DNA of 54,198 bases, filler included, from Jimgerdemannia flammicorona (taxonomy: Eukaryota), in NCBI GenBank assembly GCA_003990765.1. It is 3 parts of 3 records of this genome, joined end to end, with 100 filler letters (N's around TTAATTAATTAA, not from the genome) between each part and the next. Parts side by side here need not be neighbours in the genome. Positions count along the whole stretch, not along the records: positions 18,103 to 36,103 come from RBNJ01002336.1; 2 more parts are not named here. One strand, given 5' to 3'. Below the pieces are notes generated by a model that saw only the letters and a program-made list of their open reading frames with translations, was not told the origin of the DNA and searched no databases. Of the stretch, positions 931 through 48,413 are shown one piece after another. The position numbers and the translations under genes were made by a program. How positions within the stretch are numbered: the stretch's first letter is position 1; each line of letters starts with the position of its first letter.

Positions 931-940
931 TATATTATTT

Positions 941-11487: not shown

Positions 11488-11715
11488 TATATTACTTTTT
11501 ACAAAAAGATATCTGTGTGACTTAGCTTGCTCTAAGTAGTTTGAGCAAAAGAAGTCTCTCATTCATTATGTTCATCATTTGTATATCATATATCATACTT
11601 AATCATATGTTATCATCAGGTTATATGATCTCTCATTATATATTATATCTCATCTGTTTGTTTGTTTACATATCATATATCACATCTTACCTGTTCATCT
11701 ATTTTTCTTCTCTTA
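11488..11715 (-). mobile_element. PPT and proximal (U3) part of the 3' LTR of Gypsy element 1
   Basis: Minus-strand purine tract AAGAGAAGAAAAA at about 11702-11714 follows the accessory ORF. The LTR continues on the far side of LINE-A. Confidence 0.45.
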
Positions 11716-11848
11716 AAAATCAATGTTCTTATTGATTTGGAAATTAAGAACTAGAGGAGAGAAAGGTGGAGAATATTTCTCAATATTATTGTTTTCTCTA
11801 GTAGCTGGAGGGGTAGTTGCTGATGGCTCAATATCTAGGATGGAGAAG

Positions 11849-12538: not shown

Positions 12539-12605
12539 TCTTGTCTTGTCTTTTCTTTGGGGAGAGAAGAGAGGGATAGAGATTGTAACATATGTTTGCC
12601 CTGGG

Positions 12606-12613
12606 TATTTATA
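12606..12613 (-). promoter_or_regulatory. Candidate TATA box (TATAAATA) for the accessory ORF
   Basis: About 70 nt upstream of the ATG at 12538, followed by a CT-rich tract and an A-rich pre-ATG leader. Confidence 0.4.
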
Positions 12614-13189
12614 CTTATTTATCTATCTGGTATGACTTCAATTCAATTATGTTTTCTAGCAGAATATGTGACCTGTTTCTATAAGTGGAGCATATACTGG
12701 TTTTATGAGAAAATCCTGATTTCAAAGATATCACTACATTGTAGTTATGATTACACAGAGTTGATAAATCTTGGTCTTTTTTTTTTTTTGTCTTATCAGT
12801 ATATTTATAAGGACTGACCATCCTTGTCTAGGGTGAGGGCTCACATTGTCATAGCTAGGAGTTTGAACCTCTTGGAAATAGTATTTCTTAATCTGAGACA
12901 ATTCCTAGTAATAATATCTATCATATAAATGAACTTAGATTAGTTTCAACATCATCAGCTTTTCTAAGTTCTATATGAAGTATCTGACATCATTCAGCAG
13001 AGATAATACAGATAGTATGAAATGGAATTATTCAAATATATTTTGCTATATCTTGCTGAGTTATTCCTTGCCAGAGTATCTTCTTATAGTGTTCTTTTTT
13101 TCTGTAAAGTTCAGTATTATATATTCCAGATAAATATATAGCATCTTCTTCCTTTGCTATATGCTTAAAGTTTCAGAGCTATAGTTTCT

Positions 13190-14683
13190 TTCTCTACTGG
13201 GAGATAAGTATTTCCATGTAGTTCTGGAGGACTTTGCATGCATTCTCCAGAGTTTTTTCCAGATAGTAATACATATAAGTGAGATAATTCTTCCACTTGA
13301 TGAGAAAAAACTGCTTAACTGTTTTGGTATACTTGTAAACCTTGTAGTCAAGTACTTTCTCAATTTAAATTCCTTATAATCATTGATCCTAATTGAGGGG
13401 TAGTGGTGGAACTGTATACTTAGAGAATATATTCTCATAGTAGTCCACCAGTTGGCTAATATAGAATACCAGATATACTCGAATATTATGGGGAAGTTAC
13501 AACTTATAGTTGACTTTATTAACTTTTTCCACAATCTTATATAGTCTAATTCTTCTAGTACAGAGTTTCTTGGCTAGTTATTGTGCCAGAGTGTCAGGAT
13601 GGAGGTAGTCTGTTCTAAGTATAACTATATTACCAATATTATAGGAGACTTCTCTTTGCTTTAAGTTTACATACTTAGTCTGATAGTCCTGTACTTCTAT
13701 AAGAGCATCTCTTGTCATTTGTATAAGGTCAGAAATGATCTCAGCAAGATCTTGGGCTACTGGGACTACTGATTTCACAGTAGTGCTCAGAGTTCTTGGG
13801 TGTTGACTATGGTTCAGAAAGAATGGGGTCTTTTTCATTGAGGTTTGCTGACTATTATTGTAGGCAAACTCAGCATGGACTAGGTACTTATCTCAATCAT
13901 TCTACTTATAACAGCAGAAGATACTGAGTATCTGCTTGAGAGTCCTATTGATTTGCTCAGTCTGTCCATTAGTCTGGAGATAGTATGCAGTAAAGAACTT
14001 CAGCTTAGTTCTATAGAGGGAGAAGAATGCCTTCCAGAAGTTACTTATAAACTTTACATCTCAGTCAGATATAATTGTGCTAGATATATCATATAGCCTG
14101 GATACTTAGTTGAGAAAGATCTCAGCAATCTCTAGTACTATGGTGATGGTCTCAAGTGGGCTTGTTTGCTTAGATAGTCTACAAATACTACAATAGCATC
14201 TCATTCTACCTTGATCTTGGAGAGCTAGACAATGAAGTATATGGCAATCTGATCTCAGTTGTGACTTGAGATAAGTAAGGGTTATAGAAGACCTATAGGT
14301 AGTTTGTTATCACTTTTGAACCTTTGGCATATCTCACATAAGGCCACAAAATCTTTGATATCCTTAGTCATCTTTGGCCAATAGAACTCTTTTGAGAGGA
14401 GATTGTAGGTCTTCTCAAAATCAAAATATCCTACTGCAGGAATATTATGGAGTTCCTACATGATCTTGAGCTACAGAGTATCATTGTTGGGCACAACTAC
14501 TCTGTTATGGTTTCTATAGATAAGTCCATCATGATAAGTAAATCTTTTGGACATTTGCCTCATGGATTCTGAGACCTCAGCCTCTGGGTCTTGACAGAAT
14601 TAAAGGAAATTTGCCAGAGGGTTGTTCTGTTGATAGCTGTTCTTGATCATCTGAGTAAGGTCTCTAATTACCTTAACTATAAA
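13190..14683 (-). pseudogene. Ty3/Gypsy (chromovirus) integrase with GPY/F region and chromodomain; degenerate
   Basis: FYWPKMTKDIKDFVALCEICQR (Zn-binding region), QTNGQTEQINRTLKQIL, HAEFAYNN, KKTPFFLN, KVNYKL.LP, and chromodomain EKVLDYK...FLIKWKNY. Confidence 0.9.
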
Positions 14684-17600
14684 TTTTTTTTTTTTTTTTT
14701 TTTTTATAGTTACATAGACTGTCCTTTATTACTACCATCTATAATTATAATAATACAACATCACTCCATCCCTTCAACCAATACCCAGCAGACCCATTTC
14801 TCTCTCATTGTCGCCCTCCTGTCTGAGGACAACCCAGTCACCCACCACCTGAATCCTCCCATCACTTTTCCAGAAGATACACTGTACCAAACCTCTGCAA
14901 TCCCCCCCCACCCGGCCCCCACCCTCACCATCAGCCATTCAAAATATCTAGTAATAACCATTCCCAATATGCTACCCTATCTCCAACTCCAACCCACTGG
15001 CCCTCCTCAAATACATGTACCCAATGTCCAGCCATCCCAACCCATATGGCCAGAGCCCAGCTGAGGGTCAGCCATTCATCCCCAACCCCACCAACCAGCC
15101 TTCGGCAGAGCTCTCCCCATCTCTCCCCTTCCCCTCTCTCTAGGGTCTGCAGCTCTAACTGGTCCATGATACATCCCCAGAACACCCCCAAAACATCACA
15201 CTCACCAAGCTAATGTTCAGACATTTGTACCACTCCTCCCTTCTGACCAACATCGAAACATTCCTCACACTCAAATGTACTACCTTCCACCAAATACCCA
15301 GACCAATAGTTCAACATCACATTCCACCAGAGAACTCGCCACCATACCACCCAGAACTTGGAGGGCAGCCACTGCATCACCTACCTGCTCCAAAGCCAGA
15401 GCCCATTCCAGTCCCACTCCTCACCGATCCCAACCCTCTGCCAGGCTTCGGGCCAAAGGTCGCCACCCAAGCCCTGCAGACACTCCATACCCTTGCCAAG
15501 CTAGAAGTCCTCCACCAAAACACCACCTAGCAGTAATCTGTCCCACTGCCACATCCTCGGTCCCCAATCCCCCTCTCCTTCATCACCCTGCCACCAAAGT
15601 CCAATTCTCTTAGCACCATCCACCACCCCCCACCAAAATCCCTTATACTGCATCCTCTTGCTCTCATTCATGATTACCATTGCAAGCAGGTCACCAGAGT
15701 CTCCACGAGGGGAATACCAGACCTCCCACACCCTCTGCATGAGTGGTACCCACTCTCAGCCCCTCAGCTCACTTGCCCTTCTCAGCCACCAGGCCCTCAA
15801 GCAAGGAAGCTATTTGGTAAAGTCCACCAAACCCAGCCCACCTCTTTCCACTGGTAGCATAAGTACCTCTCATCCTATCTGACTTTGCCACCCTCCCCAG
15901 ATCCATGATCTTGCCATCTTCAATAGCCCCTTGACCACCCAAGCTAGAAAGTCCAGATAATATCTCACATACTACAGCTTCAGCAGCCAATATACATTCA
16001 GCACCATCACCCTTCCTGCTAAGGATATATACTGACCACCCCATCGCAGAAGCATATTTCTTCACTCCAGAAGTTGTTGGTCCCACCAAGCACAAGGGAG
16101 AAGTGACCCAAACATTGAGAAGTAGATTCCCAAGTAACATACTGACTCACCTGCCAGTACCACTGTTCCAATTACATTGCCCCCAACAATTCCACTGCCA
16201 AGCACCAGGGTTTTGCATTTGTGCTAATTGAGCCTAGCACTGGAACCCCTCTCATACCATTCAACAGACTGTTGTAATTCCCCCACATCTGCCAATGAGC
16301 CCAGTCTAACCACTATGTCATCTGTAAAGGCCCCCATCTTCCAATTAATCCCTAAAATGTCCAAACCCTCAACTCGATGCCAGATCCTGTCCAGTAGGGG
16401 CTCTAGGGAAAGGGCATATAAGATGGGTGACAAAGGATCACCTTATAGCACTCCACGACCAAGAGGAAAGGCCACACCCCTGTGGCCATTGACCACCAGT
16501 GCTGCCTGACTGTCCTCCAAGAGGCCAATCAATGACCCATGGAACCCCTGGGGGATACCAATCCATTTCAACACTCCCTCTAACCAGTTCCTCTGCACTC
16601 TATCATATGCCTTCTCCTGATCCAAAAAGACCAACCAGCCATCCACTCCTATAGCCCAGGCTCCTTCAATTACACCATGTACCTAAGTAGTCCCATTACA
16701 GATCAACCAGCTGCCGACAAATCCATGTTGCTCTACACCAAGCACTTGTTGAGCAATTCCTTATAGCCTCATCACTAATATCTTTGTCACCAGTTTGTGG
16801 TCTATGTCAAGTAGCATGATTGGCCACCAGTTCTTCCAATCTTCCTGCCTCTTCTTATTCTTGTAGAGCAAGGAGACCAGCCCCAGGTGCTGGCCCCCAA
16901 TCCAGGTTCCAGACCAAAGAATCTCACCACACATGTCTGTCATTTCCTCCAGTACCTTGCCCACCCCAGCCATCTTCTTCCAAAAATCCCAGGGAAGCCT
17001 ATCCTCCCCTGGGGCTGTCCCCTTACTAGTCATGGCCAAGATCTTACAAATCTCCTCTCCACACACCAGGTCCCCCAAAGTCCCCAGGCCCATCACAGGG
17101 TCTAGATGCCAATCCCCCAGCTGCTGTTCAATGTTCAAGGCATCCTCCCCTCCTTCCTCCTTGCTCCATAGATCCTCTCAACTGGTTCTCAGCAATCCCA
17201 GAATTGCCTGGGTTCTCACCACTGTTTTGTTCATCATGCTTGTAACATCCATGATAAAAACCTAGTAGGTCTCTCTCTCTCCTCAAGTCCCTGCCACTGC
17301 AGCCATGCCTCCAACCCCTTCAGCCTCACCTCCTCCTCCCTATGTAACACTCCCTTAAGTTCCTCAACTTCCTTCTGGATCCTCACAATATGCCAGTCAG
17401 TTGCCTCCCAATCTTCTAGTACTCCTGCCCATCTCTCCAAGAGGGCCACCAATTGCTGTAAGGCCCAAAGCACTCTCTGCCAATATTGGGCACTCCTTCC
17501 TTTCCCCGCTTCACTCCAATACCCCTGAGCACTCACCTTTAGCCTCCTCCAGTGGTCCCCAATCACCAGACCCCAGTCCCACCATCTCCCAATATTCACA

Positions 17601-18002
17601 ATAACCTCCTTTTCCCAGTCCACCCACAAAGCCCCATCCTTCAACAAGGAAGAATTTAGTTGCCAATGTCCAGGCCCATCCTCACTTCTCTCCAACCTCC
17701 CCCCTCCTAGCAGCCCCCAGTGATCAGACTACAGACACCAAACCACCTCCAGTACTGCCCAGATATCTGCTCTCCAGCAATCTGCTGTCAAAATCCAGTT
17801 AATTCTGGAGCCCAGCCCTGCTGCTCAGTGAGTATAAATCTGATGATCATCCCAAAACTGTCTTCCTGAATCCACCAATGAACTCAACCTCTCCATCTCC
17901 AACCAGTCTTCCAACCCACCACTCTTGCTCTGCATTCCTCTCCCTCTATCTGTCCTGTCCATCTCCTTATCTCGTACCATGTTGAAGTCCCCCCCCATAT
18001 AG
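14684..18002 (-). mobile_element. LINE-C (L1/Tx1-like) inserted just upstream of the Gypsy integrase; runs into the assembly gap
   Basis: Poly-T at 14684-14705. ORF fragments FLDQEKAYDRV, LSPILYALSLEP, AFTDD, DGPGHWQLNSSLL and GGDFN at about 17985. Some CpG retained. Confidence 0.93.
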
Positions 18003-18102
18003 NNNNNNNNNNNNNNNNNNNNNNNNNNNNNNNNNNNNNNNNNNNNTTAATTAATTAANNNNNNNNNNNNNNNNNNNNNNNNNNNNNNNNNNNNNNNNNN
18101 NN
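18003..18102. other. Assembly gap with artificial linker (N44-TTAATTAATTAA-N44)
   Basis: Exactly 100 nt with a six-frame stop 12-mer in the centre. Identical to the second gap. Confidence 0.97.
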
Positions 18103-18113
18103 AAAAAAAAAAA

Positions 18114-18702
18114 GTACTAAGTAAGAAATGACAGGGCTTTGTTAGAGGCTACTTGATTTAGAATTAGATAATCTGAGTCTATAGTATCATTGAAGAGATC
18201 AGAACTATAGAGGTGGATAGCTAATTGGTTTTTTTGAACCAGAAGAAGATGTATGATAGAGTATAGAGAGTATAGTTGAATAGAATATAGAAATATATTG
18301 GAGTCTCCCCAGACTTAGGTGGTCCTTAGTCAGTCTGTTAGAGGAGAGTTAGATGGCTATCTTGATTAATAGATATAGGAGGGTATTATTTCCTTTAGGT
18401 CAAGGAGTGCTGTAGAGTAATCTATTATCACCTATCCTCTATGTTCTCTCTTTGCAACCCTTGCTAGACAGAATTAAGAATAAAGTAAATTGAAAGGTAT
18501 GAGTTTATACTAATAATATAGTAATTGAACTAAGATCCATAAAGAATGTGGCTGTCTTAAAGGGGGCCATAGAGTGGTATAAGGAATACTTAGGGGCCAA
18601 GCTCAACTGGTACAAGTGTGAGACTCTGATACTCAATAGTAGAGTAATAGGTGAGAATATAATTGGAACAATTATTCTAAAAAAAGAGGTAGTCTATTAT
18701 CT
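18114..18702 (+). mobile_element. LINE-E: heavily degraded RT fragment
   Basis: QGFVRG, LVFLNQKKMYDRV, LSPILYVLSLQPLLDRI and GAKLNWYKCETL. Confidence 0.85.
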
Positions 18703-18719
18703 AACTCCTTATTATCTAG

Positions 18720-20931
18720 GATATGGTGAGAGCAGAAGTTAATTAAATAGAAAAATGCTCTACTGGGCTGTGGTCTGGGGACCAGAAATGTGGAGATGAG
18801 ATCATCTTCTGTTGAGAGGTTCCCAGGTTAGATTTCAGACCTTTTCATAGAACTCCTTATTTACCTCCTTAAGTACTCTTTAACATTAGTAGTTTTTTGA
18901 CTTCAGATAGTCCAATTCTGCCTTTTTGAGTTCCTTCTTATCAGCTGTGGCTTTTCTGACATCACTCTTAATTACTTATATTATTTGGATCAGTGTGTGT
19001 CCTTCTGTGAGCTCTATTAGTACTCCTTCAGTATTGATATCTTTGGCTCTTATGTTCCATATCTTATCTATTTCCAGGTAGTATTTGATGGCTCCAATAT
19101 TATTATAGTTCATCCTTCTTTTCATGTTCATGGTCTTGATGATAAGGAAGCCTTTCTTGCTTTCAAACTCTATATTTGCTATATCTAGTTCACTAGGTTA
19201 GTACTATTGTACCAAAGACCATATTCTGATTTACTTATATGCCTTCAGCACTCTTTTGGCTGCTGATGATAGATAATTCTCTTTGCTTTCTACCAGGACT
19301 TGTCTGACTATCAGTAGGTCTTCAAGTGGGGCATCATATGGTTTTTGTATTTGGAGAGCTCTCTGTTCTTCCCAAGTCTAGACTTTGATTGCCAGTCTTT
19401 CACTGTCTTGAAGTTCCTAGTAGACTGCTTCAGTGAGTTCATTCTGAGTACTACTACATCTATTTGTGGAGTCTCATAGATGACTTCTTCCTTGGCCTCA
19501 CTTTTGATTACTAGATTACTTATTAGTTATAGAGCCCTTGAGATCCTTTGTGCTCATATTCATCTAGCTTTGGTTACTTGTTGAAACTCTCTCAGGTCTT
19601 GTACTTAGTATTGAAGATACTTCATAAGATTGATATCTTTCTGAGTCTGTCTTCTAAGATTATTGTACAACTTACTTATCATGATTGTATTTATTTCTAG
19701 AGTTTTTATCTAATCTTTTATATAGGTAAGTGTGGACTCCTTGGGTATTTTGATAATTACTTTCTGGTAGTAGAGGCAGATTCCTCTGATGGTTTTTTCT
19801 ATGTTTTCCATTCTCCTGGTCTCAATATTCCTTCTTTCACAAATTTTTCTCCTCTTGTAGTTGGTATATATTGTTCTAATATACTTGAGAGATATTGCTC
19901 AGATACTAGAACTTATTTTCTTACTACTCTATGTTTTCTTAGCAGTCTATATAGAGGTTGTATTCTGTCAACATTTGTTTTGCCAAGATGACTATCTCTA
20001 CTGATCCTTCTGTTTGGTCATAGAAGTATAGGGCCTTATTGTATCTGATCAATACTACTTCTTTTTCTTATAGGTAGTCTATAACTTCTTTTGATCTAAA
20101 CAGTAGTGACTTTGAAAAGATATCTAGTAGAATCCTTTTTTCTTCTTATAGGATTGAGTTTTCTCTAATTATATCATATAACTATATCTGTATTGGGCAT
20201 TAATTTGTATGTTCAAGAAGTAGGCAGTCAGCTTATTTATATATATAAGTAGTCCATAAGGTTTAACTATCAGCTATTTCCTTTTTTTTTTTTTCAATCT
20301 TCTTGATTTTCTTTATAAGATCTTATAGCTTGATTGAGGAATTCTTTTTGGTTATTGTACCATTGATCTCTTTTCCTTTTTGAAGAAATTATTCTAGAAT
20401 TTCTTAATTGATTCTTTATCTACTATTTCTTTCCATAGTTCTTCTGATGCTTGGTTCTCCTTATCAGAGTCTGACTCTTCATTGTAAACTTGTCCTTAGA
20501 AGTTGGCACCATACCCTTATTCATAATGGTACTTTTTCCATAGATGTGGTATAAATAAGTACAGTTGCAGTATTGTTCTCTTTCTATAAAGTCAAAGTTC
20601 ACATAGTTCTTTCTGGAGTTGTAATCAATTTCCCAATAGTCCATTTCTTTAACTACTCTTAGAAAATCATCTAGATAGCTAGTGTCTGATTCTCTAGCAG
20701 TTGGGTACTATATTTCATCTATTATTTTATTTAGAATAGTTGACTTCCATTTGTTCACATCTTACTATATATTGTTGTACCATATTCTTGTAGTCTTGCC
20801 TTTCTCTTCTCTTGTCCATTTTGATATTATTTCTTCCTTTAAGTCTTTTTATGCCTGTTATTGATCTTGCTGCCAGTCAACTTGGATAGTTCTATATACC
20901 TTCTTTAGATGGCTTGAGCCCCCAGTTACTT
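18720..20931 (-). mobile_element. Internal 5' region of LTR element 2: candidate PBS and degenerate coding-like sequence with no recognisable domain
   Basis: Minus-strand TGGGGGCTCAAGCC (20911-20924) resembles a tRNA-Pro primer-binding site, 7 nt from the LTR end. The purine-rich minus strand gives protein-like reading fragments. CpG-free. Confidence 0.5.
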
Positions 20932-22145
20932 TGTCAAAAAGCAATAAAATATTCTTATAATTTCTGAGATCCTTAGTGTTTAGTCATATGATAATAAAAT
21001 ATAGATACAGCAGTTGATTATATGTCAATTTCTTTATTAAGATAATTCTTTTAAGTATAGTAGTGATGTTGTATAAGTAGTTTTCTTATATAATTTCTAT
21101 ATAATGATCTTCTATATAGTATGACAATCTCTGTATAGTGCAATAGATTCCTTATATGATTTATGTATAATAATCTTAGTAGATTTCCTTATATAAATAT
21201 GATGAATAACTAGATTTGAGCAAATAACTCAGTTTGGTGGGATTTTTCCTGAATCAAACTTACTGGGAATAGATAAATAACTTAGGTAATAGATAACTCA
21301 GATAACTCAGAGGATACAGATTCTCCTTAAATTGGCAGGCTCTCTGGAAATAGTAGAAAACTTAATAATTTAAGTAACTTAAATAACTTAGATGGTAGAG
21401 GTTCTCCTGAATTGGGCTCTTCTGGGAAATAATTTGGATTCTTAATAAGTTATGTCAAAGACTGGCTTCATTTGCATGAGATTACATTGATAGACTAGCT
21501 CTATTATATAGTTGCATTAGATAGACTAGCTTATAGTAAGATTCCTTTTAATAGGTTCTCTGAGAAATAACTTAGATAATATGGATTCTTCTAAATCAGT
21601 AGACTTCTTTAGAAATGACAGATAACTTAGACAAAGTTACATCAAAGACTAACTTCATTTGTACAGAGTTATATTGAAGACTAGTTCTATTGCAAAGTTG
21701 TATCTAATAGACTGGCTTTGGTAGAATTTCTGAAAAATAACTCAGATTCTTTTCAGGCTTATCTGGCAAGTATACTAATTAATCTTTGCATCATAAAGTA
21801 GACCAGAGTGAAAAGGGAAACTATTACTTTAGATTCAATTTCAGACTGAGGTTTATTCACTCTTGTTTCTGAAGTATTTTATACAGTTGTGATTATTTTA
21901 TTCCTAATTATAGAAGGCTATGGTAGATATTTCTGATTCAATACAAGTGTTTAGACCCAGTATAGATAAATATACCCTTTCTGATATATCTGACTAATTA
22001 TACAAGTTGTTATAATAAAGCAGTCTTAGATATTCTCAGATATATTTGACTGTCTTTTTGTATACTCATGACTATTAAGTATATTCACTATAATATATAG
22101 TTATTTTATAATATTTTTATAGTATGATTTCTACTACTCATTACA
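20932..22145 (-). mobile_element. 5' LTR of LTR element 2 (about 1.2 kb) with internal degenerate tandem repeats at about 21200-21750
   Basis: Minus strand reads TGTAA...TGACA. TATA-like box at about 21876-21883. AGAGTGAATAAACCTCAGTC at 21844-21863 is identical to 47231-47250. Confidence 0.6.
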
Positions 22146-22439
22146 ATAGATAATATAGATATTAATAATATAAATAATTAATAATATTATATTTAAATTA
22201 TATTTTGATATATATATATAAACTAAGTTATATATTCTAATAAAAGAAATTTTTTTAAAATATATATTAATGAATAGATAATATAAATTTTATAAAAATA
22301 ATTTTATTACTTACTTTATAATTTATACTGATAATAGTAATTTAGTATTTCTAAGAAACTGAATTATTCTTAGTAAGATCTAGAGTAAGATTTCTCTTAC
22401 TAAAAGATTATTAGAATTTGTAACTTTCTAGTTGTCTAC

Positions 22440-24885
22440 TGTAACATAGTAGATGCAAATCTTAGTATATTGGTAGAATTCTGGATTTTGTGTAAAGAGA
22501 GAAAGAGTATATAAAGAAGACTTTTTTTTTAAAAAATTAAACTAACTATGGTTTATTCACTCTAAAATACTGAGTTATTTACAGATTTGTGCACTAATTC
22601 TGCTACTAAATATAAGACTAAGTAATAAGTTATTTTATGTGAAATTCCAAGTAGAATTCCAGTCATATCTAAGGTAAAATCTCATATAAAATCCTATCTG
22701 AAGTTTATGAAAGTAACAACAGTTTCACTAATAATGTTTTAGATATAATATCTATAGTAAAGGTAATTTCTACACTATAATAAATCAGGAAATCAGATTC
22801 AGATACTATGATCAAATGTCTATTTCCTATTTCTATTTTATACTATATATCATATCTTCTTCCTGAATAGGTTATTTTTGTCACAAAAATACTTATTCAA
22901 ATTCTTACATTATAATATTTATATATTTATTCCTCCTATATAGACTTATTTGTAATATTGTATCCAAGTAGTTGTTAGAATGTTTTTTAAGGTCCCAATA
23001 AAGTCTTCAAATAATGAATTTAGACAGTAGTGCATATGTCATCAAAAGTTAGATGGCTTCTTCCAAAAATTAGATAGTGGCTTCTTCTAAAAATCAGATA
23101 GTAGCTTAACTTCTATTCTCCAGAGTGGTCCATTTGTATGTTGGGCAGTATTTATATATTGGGTAGCATTCATATCTTCAAAAGTTAGATGGTATTTTTT
23201 AAATAATTAACTTGGGTAGTTTGTATATAATATCTTTAATTCTCTATAGTAGTCTATTTGTATGTCAGATAGTATTCATATGTCATCAAAAGTCAGATGA
23301 CAGTATCTTTAAAAGTCAGCAGATAATAACATCTTCAATTCTCATTTGTATCTTCAAAAGTTGGACAGCATTCTTATGTCAAGCAGCATTCATATATCAG
23401 GTGGCATTTATATCTTCAAAAGTTAGACAGCATTCTTCAAATAATTTACTCAAGTAGTTCATATATGATATCTTTTAATTCTGTGGTCAAAGTAGGACAG
23501 TTTGGTGTATAACAGGTGGTATTCTTATCTTCAAAAGTTGGATAGCAATGGTCTATACAGTGGTCTATTTGGTATGACAGTAGTTTATTCAGCATTTTTT
23601 GGTAATTAATCTTATAATATTATTCCTTGAACTTAGGAGTGATCTGGCTATTAACTCAATAATATACATAGTCCTTTGAAGAGCATCTATTGTTTAATAC
23701 TAATGGTTTACAGAAATGAGACTGATAACTAGAAAAACCAATTAATAGCAGATAGTACAGAAATAAATATCATGTATATTAGATAGTATTTTTCAAATTA
23801 TTAACTTGAGTGATTTATATGATGTCTTTTAATTCTGTGGTCAAAGTAGAGTAGTTCAGTATATAATAGATAGCATTCTTATCTTCAAAAGTTGAGTAGC
23901 AATAGTCTATACAGTAGTCTGTTTGGTATGGTAGTAGTTCATTTGATATTTTTTAGTGATTAATTCTTATAACATTGTCCCTCAAACTAAAGAGCAATCT
24001 GGCTATTAACTCAATGATGTGGTCCTTTGCAGAGTATCTATTGTTCAATACTGACAGTTTATAGAAATGAGGCTGACAACTGAAATAATCAATTAACAGC
24101 AGATGGTACAGAGATGAATATTATGTATATTAGGCAGTATTCTTCAAATAATTAACTCAAGTAGTTCATATATGATAGCTTTTAATTCTGTAGTCAAAGT
24201 AGGATAGTTTGGTATATAATAGGTGGTATTCTTATCTTCAAAAGTTGAGTGATAATGGTCTATACAGTGGTCTGTTTGATATGGTAGTAGTTCATTTAGA
24301 ATTTTTCAGCAATTAAGTAATATTATCTCTCAAACTAAGGAGCAATCTGACTATTAACTCAATAATATAGTCACAACAGTCTTTACAGTAGTCTGTATAT
24401 AGTGGTTGTTTATTTTTCAGCTTAAAAGTGGGGATTCATCTTGAATCACTAGTTAATAGATATGTACTAAGTTATAATATAGCAGATATAGATCTTAGTA
24501 AGTTGGTAAGATTCTGGATTTTATGTAAAGAGAGAAAGAGTATATTAAGAAGACTTTTTTTTTAATTGAACTGACTGAGATTTATTCACTCTAAAATACT
24601 GAGTTATTTATACAGATTTGTGTGCTAATTCTGCTACTAAATATGAGGCTAAGTAATAAGTCATTTCATGTGAAATTCCAAGTAGAATTTCATTCATATC
24701 TCAGGTAGAATCTCATATAAAATCCTATCTGAAGTTCATGAAAGTAACAACAGTTTCACTAATAATGTTTTAGATATAATATCTGCAGTAAAGGTAATTT
24801 ATACACTATAATAAATCAGGAAATCAGATTCAGATACCATGATCAAAGATCTATTTCCTGTTTTTATTTCATACCATATATCACA
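22440..24885 (-). mobile_element. Non-autonomous LTR retroelement (TRIM/LARD-like), 2446 bp; LTRs at 22440-22854 and 24473-24885; TSD CTAC
   Basis: About 414-bp direct repeats. Outer termini are TG (22440) and CA (24885). CTAC at 22436-22439 and 24886-24889. Minus-strand PPT at 22855-22863, with TATA and AATAAA on the minus strand. No gag or pol motifs recognised inside. Confidence 0.88.
23030..24370. repeat. Internal tandem repeats of the non-autonomous element: about 354-bp unit x about 2.7, plus shorter ATCTTCAAAAGTTRG-containing subrepeats
   Basis: CTGTRGTCAAAGTAG recurs at 23481, 23835 and 24188 (spacings 354 and 353). Confidence 0.9.
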
Positions 24886-25199
24886 CTACTGTCTTCAATT
24901 TTCTGCAATATTATAGCACTAGTTCAGATCTCTGTTAAACACCTAATTATATACCATTTTAGCTAATATTATCCTACTTTCTAACCATTTTCACCTCCAA
25001 GCCCTTTGTTGTTTCATAATTATAAATCATGAATTGTAGTTTTGATTTATTGAAAAATTGTTACTAGCAACTGATTTTGTAATAGCTAATTTGATAGAAC
25101 TATAGATTGAGAATCATTTCTCTGTGTTATCACAGTCCCATATGAATTTTGTGCAGTGGCGGCAATTAAAAACTGGGTATATTGCATTAACTATTCCTT

Positions 25200-27061
25200 G
25201 GCTGTATAAATTATTTGGCTTAAACTATGATTCAAAGTCTCCAGTATGCACAGGAAGGTCACTAACAGAGACGGGGTTGTACCTTGGAGCATCAGACTTA
25301 TAGATATAACCTGGATCATTAGACTTATTGACATAAAATGGATCGTCAGGCTTACTGACATAACCATGTTGCAGTGGCAGGTGCCGATTTGGTGAGGTCC
25401 ATGTCGTTATCTGACGGAGTGTTGTGTGGCACTACTTGTTTGATTTGACCGGGCTAATCACGATATATATGCTACAGTGGGATGTCGTAGTCTTGTACGG
25501 GTTCGGCCTGGGCATGTTTCTGCCATGGCTTTCGGATAGTGAGAATAATGGAGATTATAATGATGACAATCAGAACACTACATATGACAGCAATTATTGT
25601 AACATTAACGGTAAGTGGTGAGGGGATGGTTGAGTTGGGAGATGGGATGGTTGAGATAGGAGAGAAGCTGGTGATCCACTGAAATGGTATTTCTCGGGTA
25701 TCTAATATGCTGAGATCATTCATAGTTTTGGCTCCATCTGTGCCTGTTATATATATCATAATGAAATTAGCAATACCAATTTAGTGTATCGAGCATCACG
25801 ATATCGTTTAAATTTGAAGTGGCACCAACACCACAGCATATGATGATAGCAGTGCCATTGGTATCTATTTAATGATGACTCAGTTGTCATGTTCGATAAA
25901 CCTTCAACAATTAATATATATAACATAAGAATATTACTTACCCAATATAGCAGTATGCCATCGACATCAGAGTGGGATCACCCCTGTTACATTAATTGGT
26001 TTCCATGTACTGCTATTAGTACTATTGTGGAAGTCGGCTGAAAATTAGCATGAATGGAAAACTTTGAAGTCTGGATGGCCCACTGTACTCACAAGAATTC
26101 TTGCAAAATACCATAAATGTTATTATCATATTCTAACTCAAAAGTGGAATTTCCTCCATAGCTGCTAGCGTCCAATTGACAATTAAATTAGAGGTTTGTT
26201 ACCAATATACCTTCCGACCATCACTAGAACATTGTAATAGTAAATCGATGTATCATAAGCAACACTAGTAAGACATTCCAACAAGAGGAGAAATGGAGAG
26301 AAGAAGAGAAAGAGAGAAATCATACCGGAGCATTGTTACGGTATACTCAGTTCTAGGCGCAGGTTTCGGCTCAACAACATTGAGAACGTTCCATACTAAC
26401 ATTTTGGTATCAAATGTAATCATATCATCAAAGATATGCTCAGCGCTTGTATTGGAAGAGAATCCTATAAGTTAATTAACAAAAATACAAGGTGTTAACT
26501 AAAAGAGATCTTTGAAAGTCGGTAGAATGTTGGAAACGTTTGATAAACTGCGGGCCTACCTGTATAATAATCGCCTTCCCCAGCCCAAATGTAGGCTACC
26601 CCTGATGAAGTCCACGAAGCGGATATATAATCCCTTTGCTGAGGCATATTGATGATGGCAGATGGAAGTGTCCAATTTCTAGTGACGGTGTTGTACTGAG
26701 CGAACCCACTTTGCAACAATGGCTGACCACGGCTGTTACCTCCGCCCCAGACATAAAACGACTCACCATCCGCGGAAGGCCACATTGCATGAGAGTCGCT
26801 CAGTGGAACAGTGGAGTTTCCTGTAGTAATCGTCAGGTCGACCCATGATGGGTTAGTGGAAATCCAGGGTTGAGAGATATCGAGGCTGTATAAGCTTTTC
26901 ACAGTAGTGTAAGGTCGTATTATTGAGCCACCGAAGACGTAGATGGTGTCGTTGATGAGCACGGCAGCCTGGTTATACTGGGAGGCAGGTATGAAGCCCG
27001 TGGCGCGATGGGCTATAGTTGCGAGTAACGTGACAATAGCCAGGAAGGTGGGTTTCGACAT
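25200..27061 (-). pseudogene. Multi-exon Kelch/galactose-oxidase-repeat single-pass membrane protein; 5' exons intact, 3' half disrupted
   Basis: GCCACC-ATG at 27061, signal peptide MSKPTFLAIVTLLATIAHRATG, and Kelch blades (IYVFGG, FYVWGG, PAPRTEYT). GT-AG intron 26559-26465. In-frame TGA at 25967-25969. TM helix IIAVICSVLIVIIIISIILTI, followed by an early TAG at 25472. The 3' end coordinate is approximate. Confidence 0.8.
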
Positions 27062-28725
27062 GGTGGCAAGTTGAAAGATTAATGCCCTCTGGATCAGAGA
27101 GACAGAGGGACCTGAAAGTCGAAAACATGACTTTGCCACAAATACGAGCACTTGATTCGTTCGTTCGACAACCCCAATAAAAAATCACAATTCTACAACT
27201 AGACCCAAACAGGTTACGTGACTGAAATGTTCAGTCAAACAATTGCGCCAACATACAGAACAGAAACCGAAAAGCGTTTTGTAGGCCAATACCCTCCACC
27301 GTATCCAAGTTATCCGGAGCCTCGTTCAGGCAAATCAGAGAACACCCTCCGATTAGCACCCAGGAATAGGAAATCTGGTACGATTGCTAGAACAATTAGT
27401 CGCAGTCCCACCAAACCCGAATAAGCCTTCCAAATCGGGTAACCAAGACTCACAGAACCCCACCGAATTAGGACAAGCTTGAATACATCGAAATAGGGTG
27501 ACCACGCACCCCTACTCGTCGTTCCAAACTCTCGGTAATCGAGGTCACGTGCCCGACTTTCGAACTCAAAACGTTGAATATAGAATAATTATCGTATATT
27601 ATCTGTACAAATCGATCGCCACAGTACATATTGTATGGCCAAGCACAAACACATGCAGCTATTGAAATATTGCATTAATAACTTCGCTGTACTCCAACCA
27701 TTCGAATACCAGTGGGCAGTGATCTCGGAGAGCCTGCAGCGAGCCATATCCTATATGATAACGTCAAAGTCGAATCTCGGAGGGTGGCGAGACCTTTAAA
27801 GTTGCGAACGCTTTGCTGGTTCATACCCAGGAAGATATTTGTACACAAAAACATATATTTTAGTAAAGGCGTATTCCTCAGGACCCTGGCACCGAGGCTT
27901 CTGAGGTGTTCCAGGTCAGATGAATTGGTGTCTTGAATCTCAACTGCCGCTTTCTTCAGAACACGCACACTTTGCAGACGCAAAGAGTAACCATACTCAG
28001 GAAGAGTTTTACAGTACCCCTAGTTGAGTGCCATCCGTACAAAAGCAATCATCGTTTAAGGAGCCACTTTGGGCGACCAGTCCGTTCATGTCGAACACCA
28101 AACGCACAAAACAGAGAGGATGATGTCACATGATTCCACCGACACCTGCTGCGCCCCGATGACGGGAAGCCCTAATTTCTAAGGCCGTCGACCAGACGGT
28201 CTTTGAAATTTGTATATCCCATCCAGTCGCTTGAGACCTCGCCTCCCCAGCGGCGCACTCCTCCAGTACTGCCAAAGTTCCGCTTCACTAGGTAAGTGTG
28301 CATCTGCTATTGCTATGCCCGCTAAGCCCGGGACGAACCCTAGGAACGAGATCTTGCAGGAGGCGTAAACTCAGATCGATTATATATTACTGATAATAAT
28401 TTGAAAGGAACGAAAGGAAACTCATCTTTTTTTTTTTTGTGGGGGGGGGGAAGGGATTTAACAAAAAATTGCAGTCAAAAGATTGGCAATTTTGCAAAGC
28501 AAGAGATCGATTATGCTATGTTTAATAGGATTGACCTTGTGCAATAAACCACTTTCTTACTATAACCTTTACATCTGAAGTTTTTTTTGTAATGTACAGA
28601 ATGGCGAAAATTCTTGTGTTGAGTTTAAAGTTGTGGACGTAAACATTTGATGTTTTCTTTAATGCACCCTCGTTCGCACCTCTATACCTTGTCACATATA
28701 CAACCAAAGCCATTATTTATTCTTT

Positions 28726-29376
28726 TTAATACATGCCTGCAAAGTCAAGATATGCATAGAACACTTGTGGGCCTTCCGAGTCATGTACACCTTCCGAGCC
28801 TTGCGGACCTTCCGAGCCTTGCGGGCCTTCCGAGTCTTGGTCTCGCGGGCCTTCCGAGCCTTGCGGGGATCCCGATTCTCGTGGGGATTCACACTCTTGC
28901 CGGGGTTCCACCTCTTGCAGGGGTTGTGCCTCTTGCGCGGATTCTGCCACTTCTTGCTGGGGTTCTGGTTCTTGCATGGACTCTGGCTCTTGTGGGGATA
29001 CAGCCTCAAGCTGGGATTCCGCCTCTGGTGGGGATTCCATCTCTTGCGGATATTCCGCCTCTTCCGAGGAATCCTCCTCTTGCGAGCCTTCGGCCTCTTG
29101 CGGGGACTCGGAGTCCTCCACTAGGACATCGACATCCATATCTTCGTCCGTCGTAGGAGACACTAACAGCTTCAGTCTGTAATTCTGCCTTTGTAAACGT
29201 TCGTTTTTCGCGCGCAACCGCTCGATATTGCCGTTGAGTAGACTTGTGATCCGAACGATCTCTTTTTCGAGCTGAGACACTTCGGCGTTGCGCTTTTTGA
29301 GTAATCGTGTAATTTCGACAACCTTCTTTTGATGCCGCGACACCTCGGCATCGCCTTCTTCGATTAACGATGACAT
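28726..29376 (-). CDS. Hypothetical 216-aa protein: N-terminal coiled coil, acidic/Pro/Gln hexapeptide-repeat tail (EGPQGS)
   Basis: Open frame with a heptad-like N-terminus. 18-bp repeat units run from about 28765 to 29110 and preserve the frame. No recognised family. Confidence 0.5.
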   Translation of the reverse strand: MSSLIEEGDAEVSRHQKKVVEITRLLKKRNAEVSQLEKEIVRITSLLNGNIERLRAKNERLQRQNYRLKLLVSPTTDEDMDVDVLVEDSESPQEAEGSQEEDSSEEAEYPQEMESPPEAESQLEAVSPQEPESMQEPEPQQEVAESAQEAQPLQEVEPRQECESPRESGSPQGSEGPRDQDSEGPQGSEGPQGSEGVHDSEGPQVFYAYLDFAGMY

Positions 29377-29379
29377 GTG

Positions 29380-29702
29380 TGGCTATGAGATGTGCGGCGA
29401 AGATGTGCGTGATAGACGTGCGGCGAGGATGTGAGGCGGTATGCGGTGCGGCGGCGTGATAGACGTGCGGCAAGGATGTGCGGCGGCGTGCGGTGCGGCG
29501 GCGTGATAGCCGTGCGGCAAGGATGTGCGGCGGCGTACGGTGCGGCGGCGTGATAGACGTGCGGCAAGGATGTGCGGAGACGTGCGGCAAGGATGTGCGG
29601 CGGCGTGATAGACGTGCGCGGCGGCGCGTTAGACGTGCGGCAAGGATGTGCGGCGGCGCGTTAGAGGTGCTGGCTGGAAGATGTGTGGTAAATGTGCGGC
29701 GG
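29380..29702. repeat. CpG-dense minisatellite built from GTGCGGCGGCGTGATAGAC and GTGCGGCAAGGAT modules
   Basis: About 7-8 irregular units of 30-45 bp are directly visible. Confidence 0.9.
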
Positions 29703-31657
29703 TGAGGTAGATATGCGCCGTGTGGTAAATGTACCCCGATGAGGGAGATGTGTGGAAAGGAAGGCTGGGAGATACAGCTTATATAGGAAAGCTGTGGAGG
29801 AGAAGATTTCTCTTTCATATGTTCATAGGTTATGGCCATGGACGTCATAACCAAGTGACACAATGCCTTGTTCGCCATCTCCATCATAAGATTGATGGAT
29901 TGTGGAGGCGACCGTTCGGACAGGCGAAGCCGCCGAACGGCGAGTTCATTAGAGGGTCCACTGGTAGTGAGAATTGGTGGTGATGGTAGTGGCAACACTG
30001 GTGGATGTGAAAATATGGAAGGTGAGAGAAGCTAGTAACCATTGAAGTGGTGCTCCTCCGATGTCTAAGATGCGAAATTGCTCTGTCGTTGTCACCTGTC
30101 CTACCTGAAGGAGTTGAGGGAGGTGACCTGTCTGCGGAGATGACCGGCGGGGATAGGTGACCCGTTGGCGGATGTCAAGTGATCAAGGGAGGGGGACCCG
30201 TCAGCAGAGGTCAAAGGAGGCGACTTGTTATGAAAGGGAAGAGAGGGTCATGGCATCGGCGGAGGTCGGTCCCGGGTCTTGATGTAATAATCAGACAATG
30301 ATGGATAATGGATAATGGATGATGGATGATGGGAGAAACAACTCAACCGCAAAGTCCGATTCACAATATTTATTCTGTCTGAGTGCAGCGACCGGATCAT
30401 TATGGAGTGTGTGCACAGCATTGGGATTTCGGCAGACGTCATTACAGTAGAGGTATGTTGTTAGCGTGGACGTTTGAAGATCAGCAGGTGTCAGATGTCC
30501 CGTGCAAAGCGAGAAAGGTTTTTTTGCTCTTGAGTAAATTTTTTCTCGACGTGCCATTGACTTTCACAGATTTCTTTATGGATGTTTTAAAAAAGTTAAA
30601 TGTTGCAATGGGCTTGTAAAACTATCCGCGAATGGCACATGCTTCTAGGAATTATCTTTTCCCGCCGATTATTCAATTGTTGGCAGTGCCATAGACTGCG
30701 TAACCTAACGGCTTGTTGGTGATTGTTGCAGTTACCACCTTCATCATCATTAACATACCATGCAATAACTATTAGAAATGATGAGATGATGGGGGATGTC
30801 ATAGATGGTAGTGGATTTTATGGCTACACTAGGTTCCTGATTTTATTATTAAGCAAATTATTTTAGATGTAATGAATGTTATTTTTCTCTCTTTTATAGA
30901 TTCTGAAGAGGTCAATCTATAGAAACAAAAATTGTTTAGATGTCATTATATATATATATCTGATCTACACTAAATTAAGATTGTTTTAAAATGATAATAA
31001 ACTATTACAAAATAAACCAGCTGAATATTGTATTAATTTTGTCATCAATTTAGTTACTTATATTTAATTAAAATATTTAACATTTATTTATTGTGATAAG
31101 CAATGAGCAGCTTGAATATTCTAGATAGAGTGACAAAATGCTATTACATAGGTACCGGTGAAAATCATATGAATAACCACCTGAACATTGTGACGCAGTA
31201 ATTATAAACTAAACCAAACATCATTAGTTAGCTTCTATGTCCTGTCTAGGATATCATGTCCTGCCTAGGATATTATGAAAAATATAAATAATATTATATA
31301 AATAGCCTAATATAGTTAGTAACTGCAAAACCAACTTGTATAAATATCTCTAGTAATTTGAGTAAATAAATCTCAGTTGAAAAACTTAAAAATAAAAGTT
31401 AAAGTTCAAAATTTAAAATTTAATTCAACTTCAGTTTACTCAATAGTTACTTAGATAAGAAGAGTAAAAATCTTACATATAATACTTAGAGAAAAAATTA
31501 CTTTAATTATAATAATTTAATCAATATAGATAAAAATAAAAATAAAAATAAAATAAAGCAAATAAGATTTACTGAAATAGTATGAACAAAAATCTTAATC
31601 TATAATAATAATCTATTATTATATAACCTAAAAATAATATCTAATTTAGTTAAAAGA

Positions 31658-32497
31658 TGTAACAGAATTAGTCTTTGGCTATTCTAAAATATTGTACAGA
31701 ATAGAATAGAATTCAATTCTGGGCCTCAGCATATCTATCTAGATTTTAATTATCTCTTGTAGCTTTTTTATACTTTTGGTCAGTCTTATATAGTACTTTT
31801 GGAGACCTCTTAGAATATCTGACTGATCAGGCCAAGTATTGTAATTTAGAAGAGGTTATAGTTCTTAGTTATATAATAAGATATTCAGTTATCTCTTTAT
31901 TGAAATAAAAGTGAAGCTGAGATCTTACATTTACTCAGATTGAGTTCTTTATATAAGTTAGTTACTCTGCACTCTAGTATAAAGTTAGCTAAGTTATGTG
32001 ACTGCTAAACTATATTTGGATTGGTATGACTCTGATGAGAGCTCTACTGAGAGTTTATATAATTTGGTAAAAATTCTCCTCAGAGTAGTATAGGGATTAT
32101 ATAAGCTATTTATAGCTATAGTACTTTAGAGGTTAACTATATAATATTATCTAACTATATTAGTATTTTTATAGTGTTTTACTATATTCTTCTCTTCTTA
32201 AAATTGAGACAGAAAACTTTTATTATCACAATTTATATAGTTAGTATTCTATAAGTATATAAGATAATACTAGCTAGATAATGTTCTATATAGATATGTT
32301 CAATAAGTTTCTAGAGCTTAGAGAGTACTTGAGGACCTTGTACTTTCTGGTAAAGATCTTTTGATCAAAGGTTAATAACTTAGTAATTACTTAGTTTGAG
32401 AGTGAATATATAGTAAAGTACTATTTATTAGTAATCTAGAGTATATATATATAAGTGCCTTGTCACAAAGAAACAGAGTCAAAGAATATTAATTACA
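31658..32497 (-). mobile_element. 3' LTR of Gypsy element 3 (about 840 bp)
   Basis: Minus-strand purine tract AAGAAGAG precedes TGTAAT at 32497, and the LTR ends ...TGTTACA at 31658. TATATAAA at about 31948-31955 and AATAAA at about 31896-31901 on the minus strand. Confidence 0.55.
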
Positions 32498-33309
32498 TTA
32501 GGCTCTTCTTAAAATATCTCTCAATTTATGAGAGAGGTGATCATATTCTAATTTAAAAGAGAAAATCCAATATCAGTTACTTATTTAATAGAGATTGATA
32601 TGGTCTGACTTTAGTTTAAAGAGTTAAAGAGGAAGTCCCAATTAGTTATCAATTTATTTAAGATTAGACTATAGTGTATTTTTTTCTTCAAGAATTGGTA
32701 TATTAAGGATTAATTGAATACTATAGATATATGTAGAGTTCTTTACTAATCTAGTTTCTGAGATAATTATATTATTTCCAGTTAATATTTTAAAACCAGT
32801 TGACTTTGTATCAGTGATGTTGTCACAGATATCTGAGTAGAGTTAAAATATATAATATATCTTACTGATAAGATTCTAGATATCTATATCAATTTTTATA
32901 AATATGTAAATATTTCTTAGATTGTTTTGATATTAATAGTACTGGAATTATAGTTCTATTTCATATTATATTATATTAGAAATTCATTTTGGTGATAAAC
33001 TTATTTATTCTATTAAAGATATTATTTAAAGGTAGTGAAGAAATAGTAGTTTTTATCTTTTTATATAATAGGTTTATCAGAAAAGAAGAGGGTGATAGTT
33101 TGAATAACTTTTTCTTTAAGGATATTGATGAGTTTATTAATTTACACTTGGATACTTAATTTGTTTTCAGTGGATTATTTAGTGTTATTTACTTATCTGT
33201 TTTTGTTAAATTATATAGTTTTTATTAGTGACTTTTGAGTCACCTCAAGACTGCTGATCTTTATTTATTGACTACTTTTTAGTATTTAATAGATTATTAT
33301 AGATTATAC

Positions 33310-34495
33310 TTTCTTTTATAAGTATTGAGTTATTTAGTTATATTTGGTCGGAGATGTTCTTTATATTCTCAGGTAGTATCTCAGTTAGAGTAGCTTTTCT
33401 ACTTGATCAAGTAGTATTTTATTGATTCTTTAATCATCTGTATTTTCTTTCCTTATACTTTAAGATTTGTTCTGCTTTAAATTCTTCATAGTCTTTGAAT
33501 TGAACTAGTGCAAGTAGTGATATAGATTATTCTTTGAATAGATTGAAGTATATTTTCTGAGTTATAAGATATAGAATACTAGATATATTTTTCATCTATT
33601 TAATAGTTGAAGTTTGTAAGTAGTTTCTTCAATTCATTTCAAGATCTTAAAGAGTCTAATAAAGTGGGATCTGAGTTTCTTTTTGGGCCCAATATTGTCT
33701 AATGTGAGATACTTAGTATTCAGTAGCATCTGGTAAATGTAAATTTATTTCTGTACCTATTGGTATTGATAATATAATTATACTATATCTAAATTAGGGT
33801 ATTATATACTTTTTATATCTTTTCTTTAATAGTTCTAATTAAATTTTGAGCTGCTAGTACTCAAAACTATATTATATTAATTAGTGTTTGGGACTTCTGA
33901 TCACTCATAGCTTTGAATAGTATGAGTTTAGTACTAATAGATATAGAGCTATTATATATAAATTTGGCTAAGGCTAGGTATTCATATTAATTATTCTATA
34001 TATAATTACAATAGATACTGAGTATCTGCTTGAAGATTTGGGTGGTCCTTTTAGTATATCTATTAGTTTGTAGATAAAAAATAATAGATATTATAAGCTA
34101 TATTCTTAGACTCTTAAATAATATCTTCCAGAAGTTACTCATAAATTGTATATCTCTTAAAAACTGTTAATAGTCTATAGAGTTGAAATATATTTTGCAA
34201 AAATAGTTAGATAGTTTTGAAAGCTATAACTAATATATCTATTATATATAGCAAAGTATACTTATTTACTAAGGTAATCTATAAATATGATGATCATATC
34301 TCTTCTTTTCTTTATTTTTAATAGCTGCATAATAAAATCTAAGTCAATGTGATCTCAGTTTCTAGTTGAGATTAAGAGAGAACTGGAGTATTTCAGATAA
34401 AGCTAGATTATTAGACTTATATTATTGGTATATTTTATAACTTATGATATATTTTCTAATATCTTATATTATCTTTGACTAGTAAAATTCTTACA
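33310..34495 (-). pseudogene. Ty3/Gypsy integrase plus chromodomain of element 3; extremely degraded
   Basis: FY*SKII*DIRKYI, IFIDYLSK, KKLRSHFIRLFKI, TYKLQL, EEFKAEQIL and YLIK*KSY...T*E. Confidence 0.8.
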
Positions 34496-36065: not shown

Positions 36066-36103
<38 letters not shown>

Positions 36104-43877: not shown

Positions 43878-43926
<49 letters not shown>

Positions 43927-48332: not shown

Positions 48333-48413
48333 ATCTCTTTCCAGTACCATTCAGGTTACACAACCTTTGGAAGGCACTTTCGACATCGTTTTTGGCAAAA
48401 AGAGACTAACAAT

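Follow-up and report, generated by a model that had tools for sequence, protein, structure and literature searches.

Within a 54,198-nucleotide (nt) stretch of DNA from the Jimgerdemannia flammicorona assembly GCA_003990765.1 (hereafter, the window), the two long terminal repeats (LTRs) of a retrotransposon remnant at 22440-24885 differ mostly by C-to-T transitions that affect C before A or C and largely spare C before T. The element lies in a block of transposon remains almost devoid of CpG, whereas the adjoining gene blocks keep CpG at the expected level. Across contexts, the order of loss is CG far above CA, CA about equal to CC, and both above CT. From a few hundred sites in this one window, we describe the pattern as a putatively methylation-associated loss of cytosine from transposons with a Dim2-like context order.

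The element and its parts are as follows:

22436..22439 (+): target-site duplication CTAC, left copy, read directly

22440..24885 (+): the whole LTR element, a non-coding, LTR-type insertion

22440..22854 (+): 5' LTR, 415 nt, 24.3% G+C, no CpG; starts with TG and ends with TA (a decayed CA)

22855..24472 (+): internal region, 1618 nt, without coding capacity

23423..24372 (+): tandem array within the element, 2.7 copies of a 353-nt unit, 80% matches

24473..24885 (+): 3' LTR, 413 nt, 26.9% G+C, no CpG; starts with TA (a decayed TG) and ends with CA

24886..24889 (+): target-site duplication CTAC, right copy, read directly

The interior contains no open reading frame (ORF) of at least 150 amino acids (aa), none of the six ORFs of 55-84 aa that overlap the element has a Pfam match (0/6), and the ORF and Pfam scan found no gag or pol between the LTRs; the 353-nt tandem array occupies 950 of the 1618 nt. 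Because it has no long ORF, an interior that is mostly tandem array and no Pfam match, we interpret 22440-24885 as a dead, non-autonomous LTR retrotransposon. It has in common with TRIM and LARD elements, the non-autonomous LTR retrotransposons of this type, the paired LTRs, the TG..CA ends, the 4-bp target duplication and the lack of gag and pol; the tandem array that fills most of the interior is the difference. A purine-rich run of 11 nt with one T lies at 24426-24436, 36 nt upstream of the 3' LTR. No tRNA gene was found within the window, and no tRNA-matching primer site was identified in the element (no tool search was made for one). A core motif of ~45 nt in the LTRs (22540-22585 and 24569-24616) recurs at 21840-21885, at 31300-31400 on the minus strand, and at 47208-47285; one of these three extra places sits in CpG-containing DNA, and the motif may derive from another mobile element or be a regulatory module that these places share. 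In a search for family copies elsewhere, a 28-letter degenerate LTR pattern matched six metagenome stretches, which share nothing else with the element by BLASTN and were rejected as chance matches. Viral contigs gave no match to the LTR pattern or to the reverse transcriptase of the long interspersed nuclear elements (LINEs) described below.

Of the 417 columns in the LTR alignment, 6 are gap columns and 39 carry substitutions, which divide into 32 transitions and 7 transversions; identity is 90.5% (39 differences over 411 aligned positions), p-distance is 0.095, and Kimura two-parameter (K2P) distance is 0.10. By context, the 32 transitions comprise 23 of CA/TG versus TA, 6 of CpT and 3 of CpC, and the first class affects both strands alike (TG 11, CA 12). 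The original prediction was that the first 26 nt hold six differences, all transitions and five of them CA/TG versus TA, and that the inner termini had decayed from TG and from CA to TA. Direct reading and the alignment agree with it on both counts: the six differences fall in columns 2, 6, 11, 16, 17 and 19, the 3' LTR has TA at 24473-24474 where the 5' LTR has TG, and the 5' LTR has TA at 22853-22854 where the 3' LTR has CA (24884-24885). The G/C allele is kept by the 3' LTR at 21 of the 32 transition sites; the 5' LTR carries 21 derived changes and the 3' LTR 11. In two places (columns 16-17 and 317-318), TGCA in one LTR faces TATA in the other, both strands having changed at one spot, and only one site (columns 155-156) opposes TG to CA between the two LTRs.

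We used a test that does not depend on polarity, setting aside 43 sites whose neighbors differ between the LTRs; transitions occurred at 20 of 140 sites with a pyrimidine (Y) before A, compared to 7 of the 222 remaining sites (odds ratio 5.1, p=1.4e-4), and the excess of CA/TG versus TA is therefore not attributable to chance. The test was repeated without columns 1-26 and the last three columns, in which the signature had been discovered; CpA again exceeded CpT (16/90 versus 3/100, p=0.001).

The direction of change had been claimed as C-to-T, not T-to-C, and all lines of evidence agree with that claim. The canonical TG..CA termini polarize two sites as C-to-T. The three outgroup copies of the ~45-nt core motif within the window polarize three differences, all as G-to-A, two of them TG-to-TA in the 5' LTR and one of the CpC type in the 3' LTR. 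We also compared the element, at 80% likeness, with contigs from two public sequencing runs of the same organism (X1 and X2), among which are family members at a depth near 1000. The window carries A or T against contig G or C at 27 places, versus 6 in reverse, for X1, and at 27 places, versus 11 in reverse, for X2. Among the 40 places listed, 34 have the other letter in most of the contig depth: 26 run from contig G/C to window A/T (CA 10, CG 8, CC 5, CT 3), 4 run the other way, and 4 are transversions. Among the places listed, too, the contigs keep CpG at 7 sites that lack it in the window. The inserted letters of one contig include G and C in columns 317-318, against A and T in the 5' LTR; the loose ends and inserted letters of contigs were compared by eye only and entered no count.

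If a CpG was present at insertion, its copy in each LTR decays on its own to TG or CA, and half of such sites should end as TG versus CA. The LTR pair has only one TG-versus-CA site against 21 TA-versus-CA/TG sites, and CpG decay is therefore unable to explain the LTR pattern, as had been predicted. By simple arithmetic, a CpG origin for the 21 TA sites needs ~73 CpGs per 415-nt LTR and nearly no original TA, whereas the family contigs retain most TA positions; strand bias cannot rescue such an origin because TG and CA are equally affected (11 and 12). CpGs that were present at insertion and hit twice were ruled out on these grounds. At 24737-24738 and 24784-24785, which read CA/TA or TG/TA in the LTRs, the contigs carry CG, and the step to TA at both sites is nevertheless a C-to-T change at CpA.

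Twice-decayed CpGs form part of a broader account in which the signature is an accident, whether of these, of small numbers or of wrong polarity (T-to-C at TpA). The two checkable CG sites speak for it, as does majority rule on the three tandem units, which yields 20 apparent T-to-C changes at TpA in 222 lineage-sites; we would read the latter as parallel CA-to-TA changes. However, the polarity-free result stands, the excess recurs outside the discovery columns, and each independent polarity check gives C-to-T. TG-versus-CA sites should also be common if the TA sites arose from CpGs at insertion, as 6 of 7 interior contig CpGs carry a single change and 1 of 7 a double one (among the places listed). 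We consider an accident very improbable and largely refuted.

C-to-T changes per lineage-site were tabulated by the base following C:

LTR pair: CA 22/102, CC 4/28, CT 4/110, CG 2/4

Window versus contigs (two well-listed stretches): CA 9/42, CC 5/27, CT 3/29, CG 7/12

Three tandem units (majority rule): CA 12/72, CC 7/42, CT 6/102, CG none

Pooled: CA 43/216 (19.9%), CC 16/97 (16.5%), CT 13/241 (5.4%), CG not pooled

In the pooled counts, CA and CC each differ from CT (p=2.7e-6 and p=0.002, respectively), whereas CA and CC are alike (p=0.53); the units of the 353-nt array show the same transition pattern as the LTR pair. The original prediction regarded CpA-to-TpA as the hallmark. Although the rates are indeed unequal among dinucleotides, the signature is not specific to CpA: CpG is the prime target, CpC is mutated about as often as CpA, and CpT alone is spared among non-CpG contexts.

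Wider sequence context had no visible influence. A CHG preference was absent (CAG 9/53 versus CAH 23/130), and with CTG at 1/51, plant-like CHG methylation was ruled out. No APOBEC-like effect of a 5' T was seen (ACA 8/32, GCA 5/14, TCA 7/42, CCA 2/14). In the 5' LTR, columns 1-190 have 9 G-to-A changes and 1 C-to-T change, and the columns beyond 190 have 3 and 8, respectively; this distribution follows the available sites (TG 16 and CA 5 in columns 1-190, TG 9 and CA 21 beyond), and strand-coherent runs were ruled out as the trace of a processive event.

More striking than the LTR signature itself is the division of the window into CpG-free and CpG-normal blocks:

1..25159 (no strand): CpG-free transposon compartment containing the element; 19 CpGs, 16 of them in LINE copy B

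14285..14455 (-): Integrase_H2C2, Ty3/gypsy-type integrase zinc-binding domain, E=5e-17

31195..36103 (no strand): second CpG-free block; 24% G+C, 1 CpG

34715..34987 (-): copia-like Pol_BBD remnant in the second CpG-free block

1..14000: CpG seen/expected 3/479

18001..25000: CpG seen/expected 0/149

32001..36000: CpG seen/expected 1/58

26001..31000: CpG seen/expected 259/266

36001..47000: CpG seen/expected 549/556

The ratio of observed to expected CpG is ~0 in the transposon blocks, which contain matches to RVT_1, Integrase_H2C2 and Pol_BBD, and ~1 in the gene blocks (~1.0 across 25160-31194 and 36207-47000). The change from one kind of block to the other is abrupt, to within a few hundred bases, at 25160, 31194 and 36207. 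To the right of the element, the first CpG occurs at 25160; the CpG-free state extends 274 nt past the element (24886-25159), which fits either spreading or leakage. Two remnants with ~61% identity, one per CpG-free block, lie at 13856-14391, overlapping the integrase zinc-binding domain, and at 33950-34492, near Pol_BBD. Stretches of N occur at 18003-18102 and 36104-36203 (two pairs of 44-N gaps), dividing the window into three contigs, and a run of 35 T precedes the second.

Strand-symmetric dinucleotide odds also distinguish the blocks. CT/AG is 1.43-1.52 in the CpG-free blocks and 0.89-0.93 in the gene blocks, CA/TG is 0.84-1.09 and 1.11-1.12, and TA is 0.98-1.14 and 0.77-0.86, respectively. 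The surviving C in the CpG-free blocks is thus enriched before T, and composition over ~26 kb agrees with the alignments. These blocks also have raised GA/TC (1.17-1.22) and lowered AA/TT (0.77-0.89); CpG loss and the sparing of CpT explain only part of the shifts in CT/AG, GA/TC and AA/TT. Because gene-block non-coding DNA is not pushed to 24% G+C and its TA stays low, the mutational regime is specific to the compartment. In support of the original prediction, the changes lie in a specially treated compartment, where both CpG and dinucleotide odds differ from those of the neighboring genes.

Three copies of a LINE provide a further comparison:

2482..7232 (-): LINE copy A, Tx1/L1-like reverse transcriptase remnant; 1 CpG in 5400 nt examined, 44% G+C

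14692..17995 (-): LINE copy B; 16 CpGs in 3202 nt examined, 51% G+C; ends at the N gap

48340..54198 (+): LINE copy C, the least decayed; 155 CpGs in 6198 nt examined; runs off the end of the window

52075..53262 (+): RVT_1 ORF of LINE copy C

The copies are mutually 60-69% identical (A versus C 69%). Copy A is the most decayed, and its G+C remains at 40-45% despite the near-absolute erasure of CpG. Of 118 aligned CpGs of copy C, 29 are TG in copy A, 28 are CA, 21 are TA, and 40 are in another state. Based on three-way parsimony, the copy A lineage lost C at 49/182 CA (.27), 37/185 CC (.20) and 21/100 CT sites (.21; CA versus CT p=0.31); pairwise loss from copy C to copy A is.31 for CA,.27 for CC and.25 for CT, and the reverse values are.14,.15 and.18, so that the excess again descends from CA through CC to CT, though weakly. 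Both the polarization and the pairwise counts are weak evidence, as the copies are 31-40% apart and perhaps descend from more than one source lineage. The window's remaining repeat pairs, with identities of 57-64%, entered no count. The sense strand of the Tx1/L1-like LINE is rich in G and poor in C (G 2392 versus C 968 over the stretch examined in copy C; GC skew ~+0.4), with A about equal to T, and the change from copy C to copy A involves more C-to-T loss on the sense strand (CA.38 versus.28, CT.32 versus.20). This asymmetry may point to mutation or editing that acts differently on the two strands.

The near-uniform loss of C across non-CpG contexts in the LINE copies is consistent with a simpler explanation, in which only CG is methylated and the non-CpG pattern reflects the ordinary neighbor-dependent C-to-T bias of unselected AT-rich DNA; CA/TG, like other pyrimidine-purine steps, would just be more mutable, and no dedicated mutator would be involved. 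As a control, we counted changes in tandem repeats within CpG-containing DNA of the window and, with few sites, found the same order (Y-before-G 19/95, Y-before-A 5/55, Y-before-T 2/58, Y-before-C 1/74). Furthermore, in excerpts of a study with a vertebrate model (bioRxiv 10.64898/2026.09.02.747768), CT/AG enrichment can follow from CpG loss alone. However, Y-before-C is the lowest class in the tandem-repeat control, unlike in the element, and the regime is limited to one compartment, with gene-block non-coding DNA escaping the drive to 24% G+C and high TA. The fourfold gap between CpA and CpT (19.9% versus 5.4%) is also large for a plain neighbor effect, judged against germline spectra. On balance, we find this explanation rather unlikely. 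Adjoining LINE copy C, tandem units of 85 nt and 120 nt at 46880-47622 differ mostly by CpG transitions (Y-before-G 14/46), and CpG decay seems to be under way there.

A second alternative is a true defense resembling repeat-induced point mutation (RIP), in which an enzyme that senses duplication, probably around the sexual cycle, deaminates C in bursts with a preference for CpG, CpA and CpC. Canonical RIP prefers CpA far above CpT, followed by CpG and then CpC, and its index thresholds are TpA/ApT of at least 0.89 and (CpA+TpG)/(ApC+GpT) of at most 1.03. We applied these thresholds to 30 bins of 1 kb in the CpG-free blocks (1-25000 and 31001-36000); 25 bins passed the first, in favor of such a defense, and only 7 passed the second, against it. 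The dominance of transitions over transversions (32 to 7), the presence of derived changes in both LTRs (21 and 11), the two places where TGCA faces TATA, and the erasure of CpG from LINE copy A at 40-45% G+C are all compatible with such a defense. The context order, however, is unlike that of canonical RIP, in which CpC is the least and CpT the second most affected, and there are no strand-coherent runs beyond site availability. The contigs with depth near 1000 that keep CpG at 7 sites further suggest that many little-mutated copies coexist, if the runs are of DNA. The CpA bias of RIP appears in the relevant portions of two papers (PMC7862722, PMC4014442). Moreover, the portion of a 2025 kingdom-wide screen that covers repeat-directed C-to-T signatures reports them only in Ascomycota (PMC12543289), and the corresponding portion of a 2026 review places RID in Ascomycota only (PMC13297926). 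A true RIP-like defense is, in our view, improbable.

The original prediction offered two forms of a repeat-targeted C-to-T process, a RIP-like one and deamination of dense non-CG methylation. The CpG-first order is unlike RIP in Neurospora, and the second form is the likeliest. With moderate confidence, we favor methylation-linked decay of transposon heterochromatin, with a CG tier and a DIM-2-like non-CG tier. The non-autonomous element would have landed among the remains of old transposons, in a block kept as methylated heterochromatin. Methylation in the CG context would lead to deamination of 5-methylcytosine (5mC) to T and wipe out CpG, while a DIM-2-like enzyme may add non-CG methylation at a lower level, preferring C before A or C and avoiding C before T. 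Spontaneous or enzyme-aided deamination of this non-CG 5mC would convert CA/TG to TA and CC to TC, and its action since insertion could account for most of the differences between the two LTRs. Whereas the C-to-T polarity, the context order and the restriction to the transposon compartment are observed, we infer methylation itself, the enzyme and independence from duplication.

The closest parallel is Dim2 in the ascomycete Zymoseptoria tritici. Excerpts of that work (PMC8016269) give Dim2-dependent 5mC in transposons as 43-61% at CG, 10-22% at CA, 3-8% at CC and <0.01% at CT, and describe Dim2 as promoting C-to-T mutation in methylated repeats at mitosis. The order in our window, which is one of mutation and not of methylation (CG 2/4 and 7/12, CA 19.9%, CC 16.5%, CT 5.4%), equals this site order. 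Shared with Z. tritici, according to the same excerpts, are the setting in transposon heterochromatin, the CA-to-TA change, and the prevalence of CT among remaining CH dinucleotides, of which CT is commonest and CA rarest in Z. tritici transposons. Confinement to transposon blocks, presumed to be heterochromatin, is seen here in CpG and in the dinucleotide odds. Among Mucoromycota, Phycomyces is listed with a DIM-2 homologue and DNMT1 in parts of two papers (PMC13297926, PMC7862722), and the pertinent section of a study of Gigaspora and Rhizophagus (PMC13443276) reports bimodal CpG methylation with highly methylated transposable elements.

Several points weigh against this interpretation. In the same excerpts on Z. 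tritici (PMC8016269), >98% of Dim2-linked mutations occur at CA and CG is not depleted, whereas CpG is the most depleted dinucleotide here and CC is mutated as often as CA; because CG is erased here and spared there, two processes must be assumed. The DIM-2-like enzyme is purely conjectural, and the section of the Phycomyces bisulfite study concerned (PMC7862722) gives non-CG methylation of only 0.3-0.5%. The LINE copies display a weak context effect only. The pooled sets are small and overlap, with the contig stretch 23975-24112 lying inside tandem unit 2, and 14 further contig differences beyond the 40 listed are outside the context count. Finally, the ancestor reconstructed for the LTR pair treats every transition as C-to-T, with a direct check for a minority of sites.

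A bolder claim, which encompasses either a DIM-2-like "mitotic RIP" like that of Zymoseptoria or an unrelated RIP-like system, is that an active, enzyme-driven cytosine mutator operates on transposons in a Mucoromycota fungus, targeting CpG, CpA and CpC and not CpT and so generating the AT-rich blocks free of CpG; we view it as possible but doubtful.

Other systems share some of these features. RIP in Neurospora crassa, which is premeiotic and dependent on RID, resembles the present pattern in C:G-to-T:A changes in repeats, many CA-to-TA changes, AT-rich relics and mutation of both copies; it differs in its preference order and in the absence of strand-coherent runs from our element. In the relevant part of a study of Rhizoctonia solani AG8 (PMC4014442, with references to Pucciniomycotina), CpG-biased "RIP-like" hypermutation likewise affects CpG first, is dominated by transitions and leaves doubt between RIP and plain 5mC deamination; however, genes are hit there as much as repeats, whereas here genes keep CpG and there is a second tier at CpA and CpC. 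The Glomeromycotina Gigaspora and Rhizophagus (section cited above of PMC13443276) and vertebrate transposons are similar in their methylated transposons beside unmethylated genes and in CpG loss centered on transposons. In the vertebrate study excerpted above (bioRxiv 10.64898/2026.09.02.747768), CT/AG enrichment accompanies CpG loss in transposons, and observed/expected CpG in mammals is ~0.2-0.3, compared to <0.01 here, where there is also a clear non-CpG effect.

Neighboring genes support the view that the genome is Mucoromycota-like and not Dikarya, the taxon on which the original prediction depended. The best named relatives of a phosphotransferase-family gene (36706-37968) are from Endogone sp. 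(52% identity) and Mortierella sp. (42%), with Dikarya only at 24-36%. The nearest Atlas clusters of a Kelch ORF (26498-27184) are mostly Mucoromycota, and the LINE reverse transcriptase has its named relatives chiefly in Mucoromycota and Zoopagomycota. CpG-normal DNA at 39087-40215 holds 11.3 copies of a 102-nt tandem repeat, probably a gene with ankyrin-type repeats, judged by its period only. GC-rich short tandem repeats with periods of 18, 47, 53 and 76 occur at 28764-29678 inside a 341-aa ORF (29009-30031, minus strand) that has no Pfam match.

In a literature search that was not exhaustive, we found no report of a non-CpG C-to-T signature in Mucoromycota, and the terms RIP, methyl, AT-rich, bimodal and transposable have no occurrences in the FRE genome paper (PMC12574304). 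Early-diverging fungi are usually described, as in the part of a review devoted to them (PMC13297926), as relying on N6-methyladenine (6mA) with little 5mC, and repeat-directed C-to-T mutation is regarded as an ascomycete specialty. Here, a Mucoromycota-like genome has gene blocks with normal CpG, transposon blocks nearly without CpG, and a second, non-CpG tier of cytosine loss. If this holds genome-wide and the methylation is confirmed, fungi would have long possessed non-CG methylation that mutates transposons as a side effect; it would help to explain how transposons are inactivated in large, repeat-rich genomes like those of Endogonales, and k-mer screens tuned to AT-rich RIP products could overlook such systems. 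Were the mutator enzyme-driven, repeat-directed hypermutation would exist outside Dikarya and would probably predate the split between the DIM-2 and RID enzymes.

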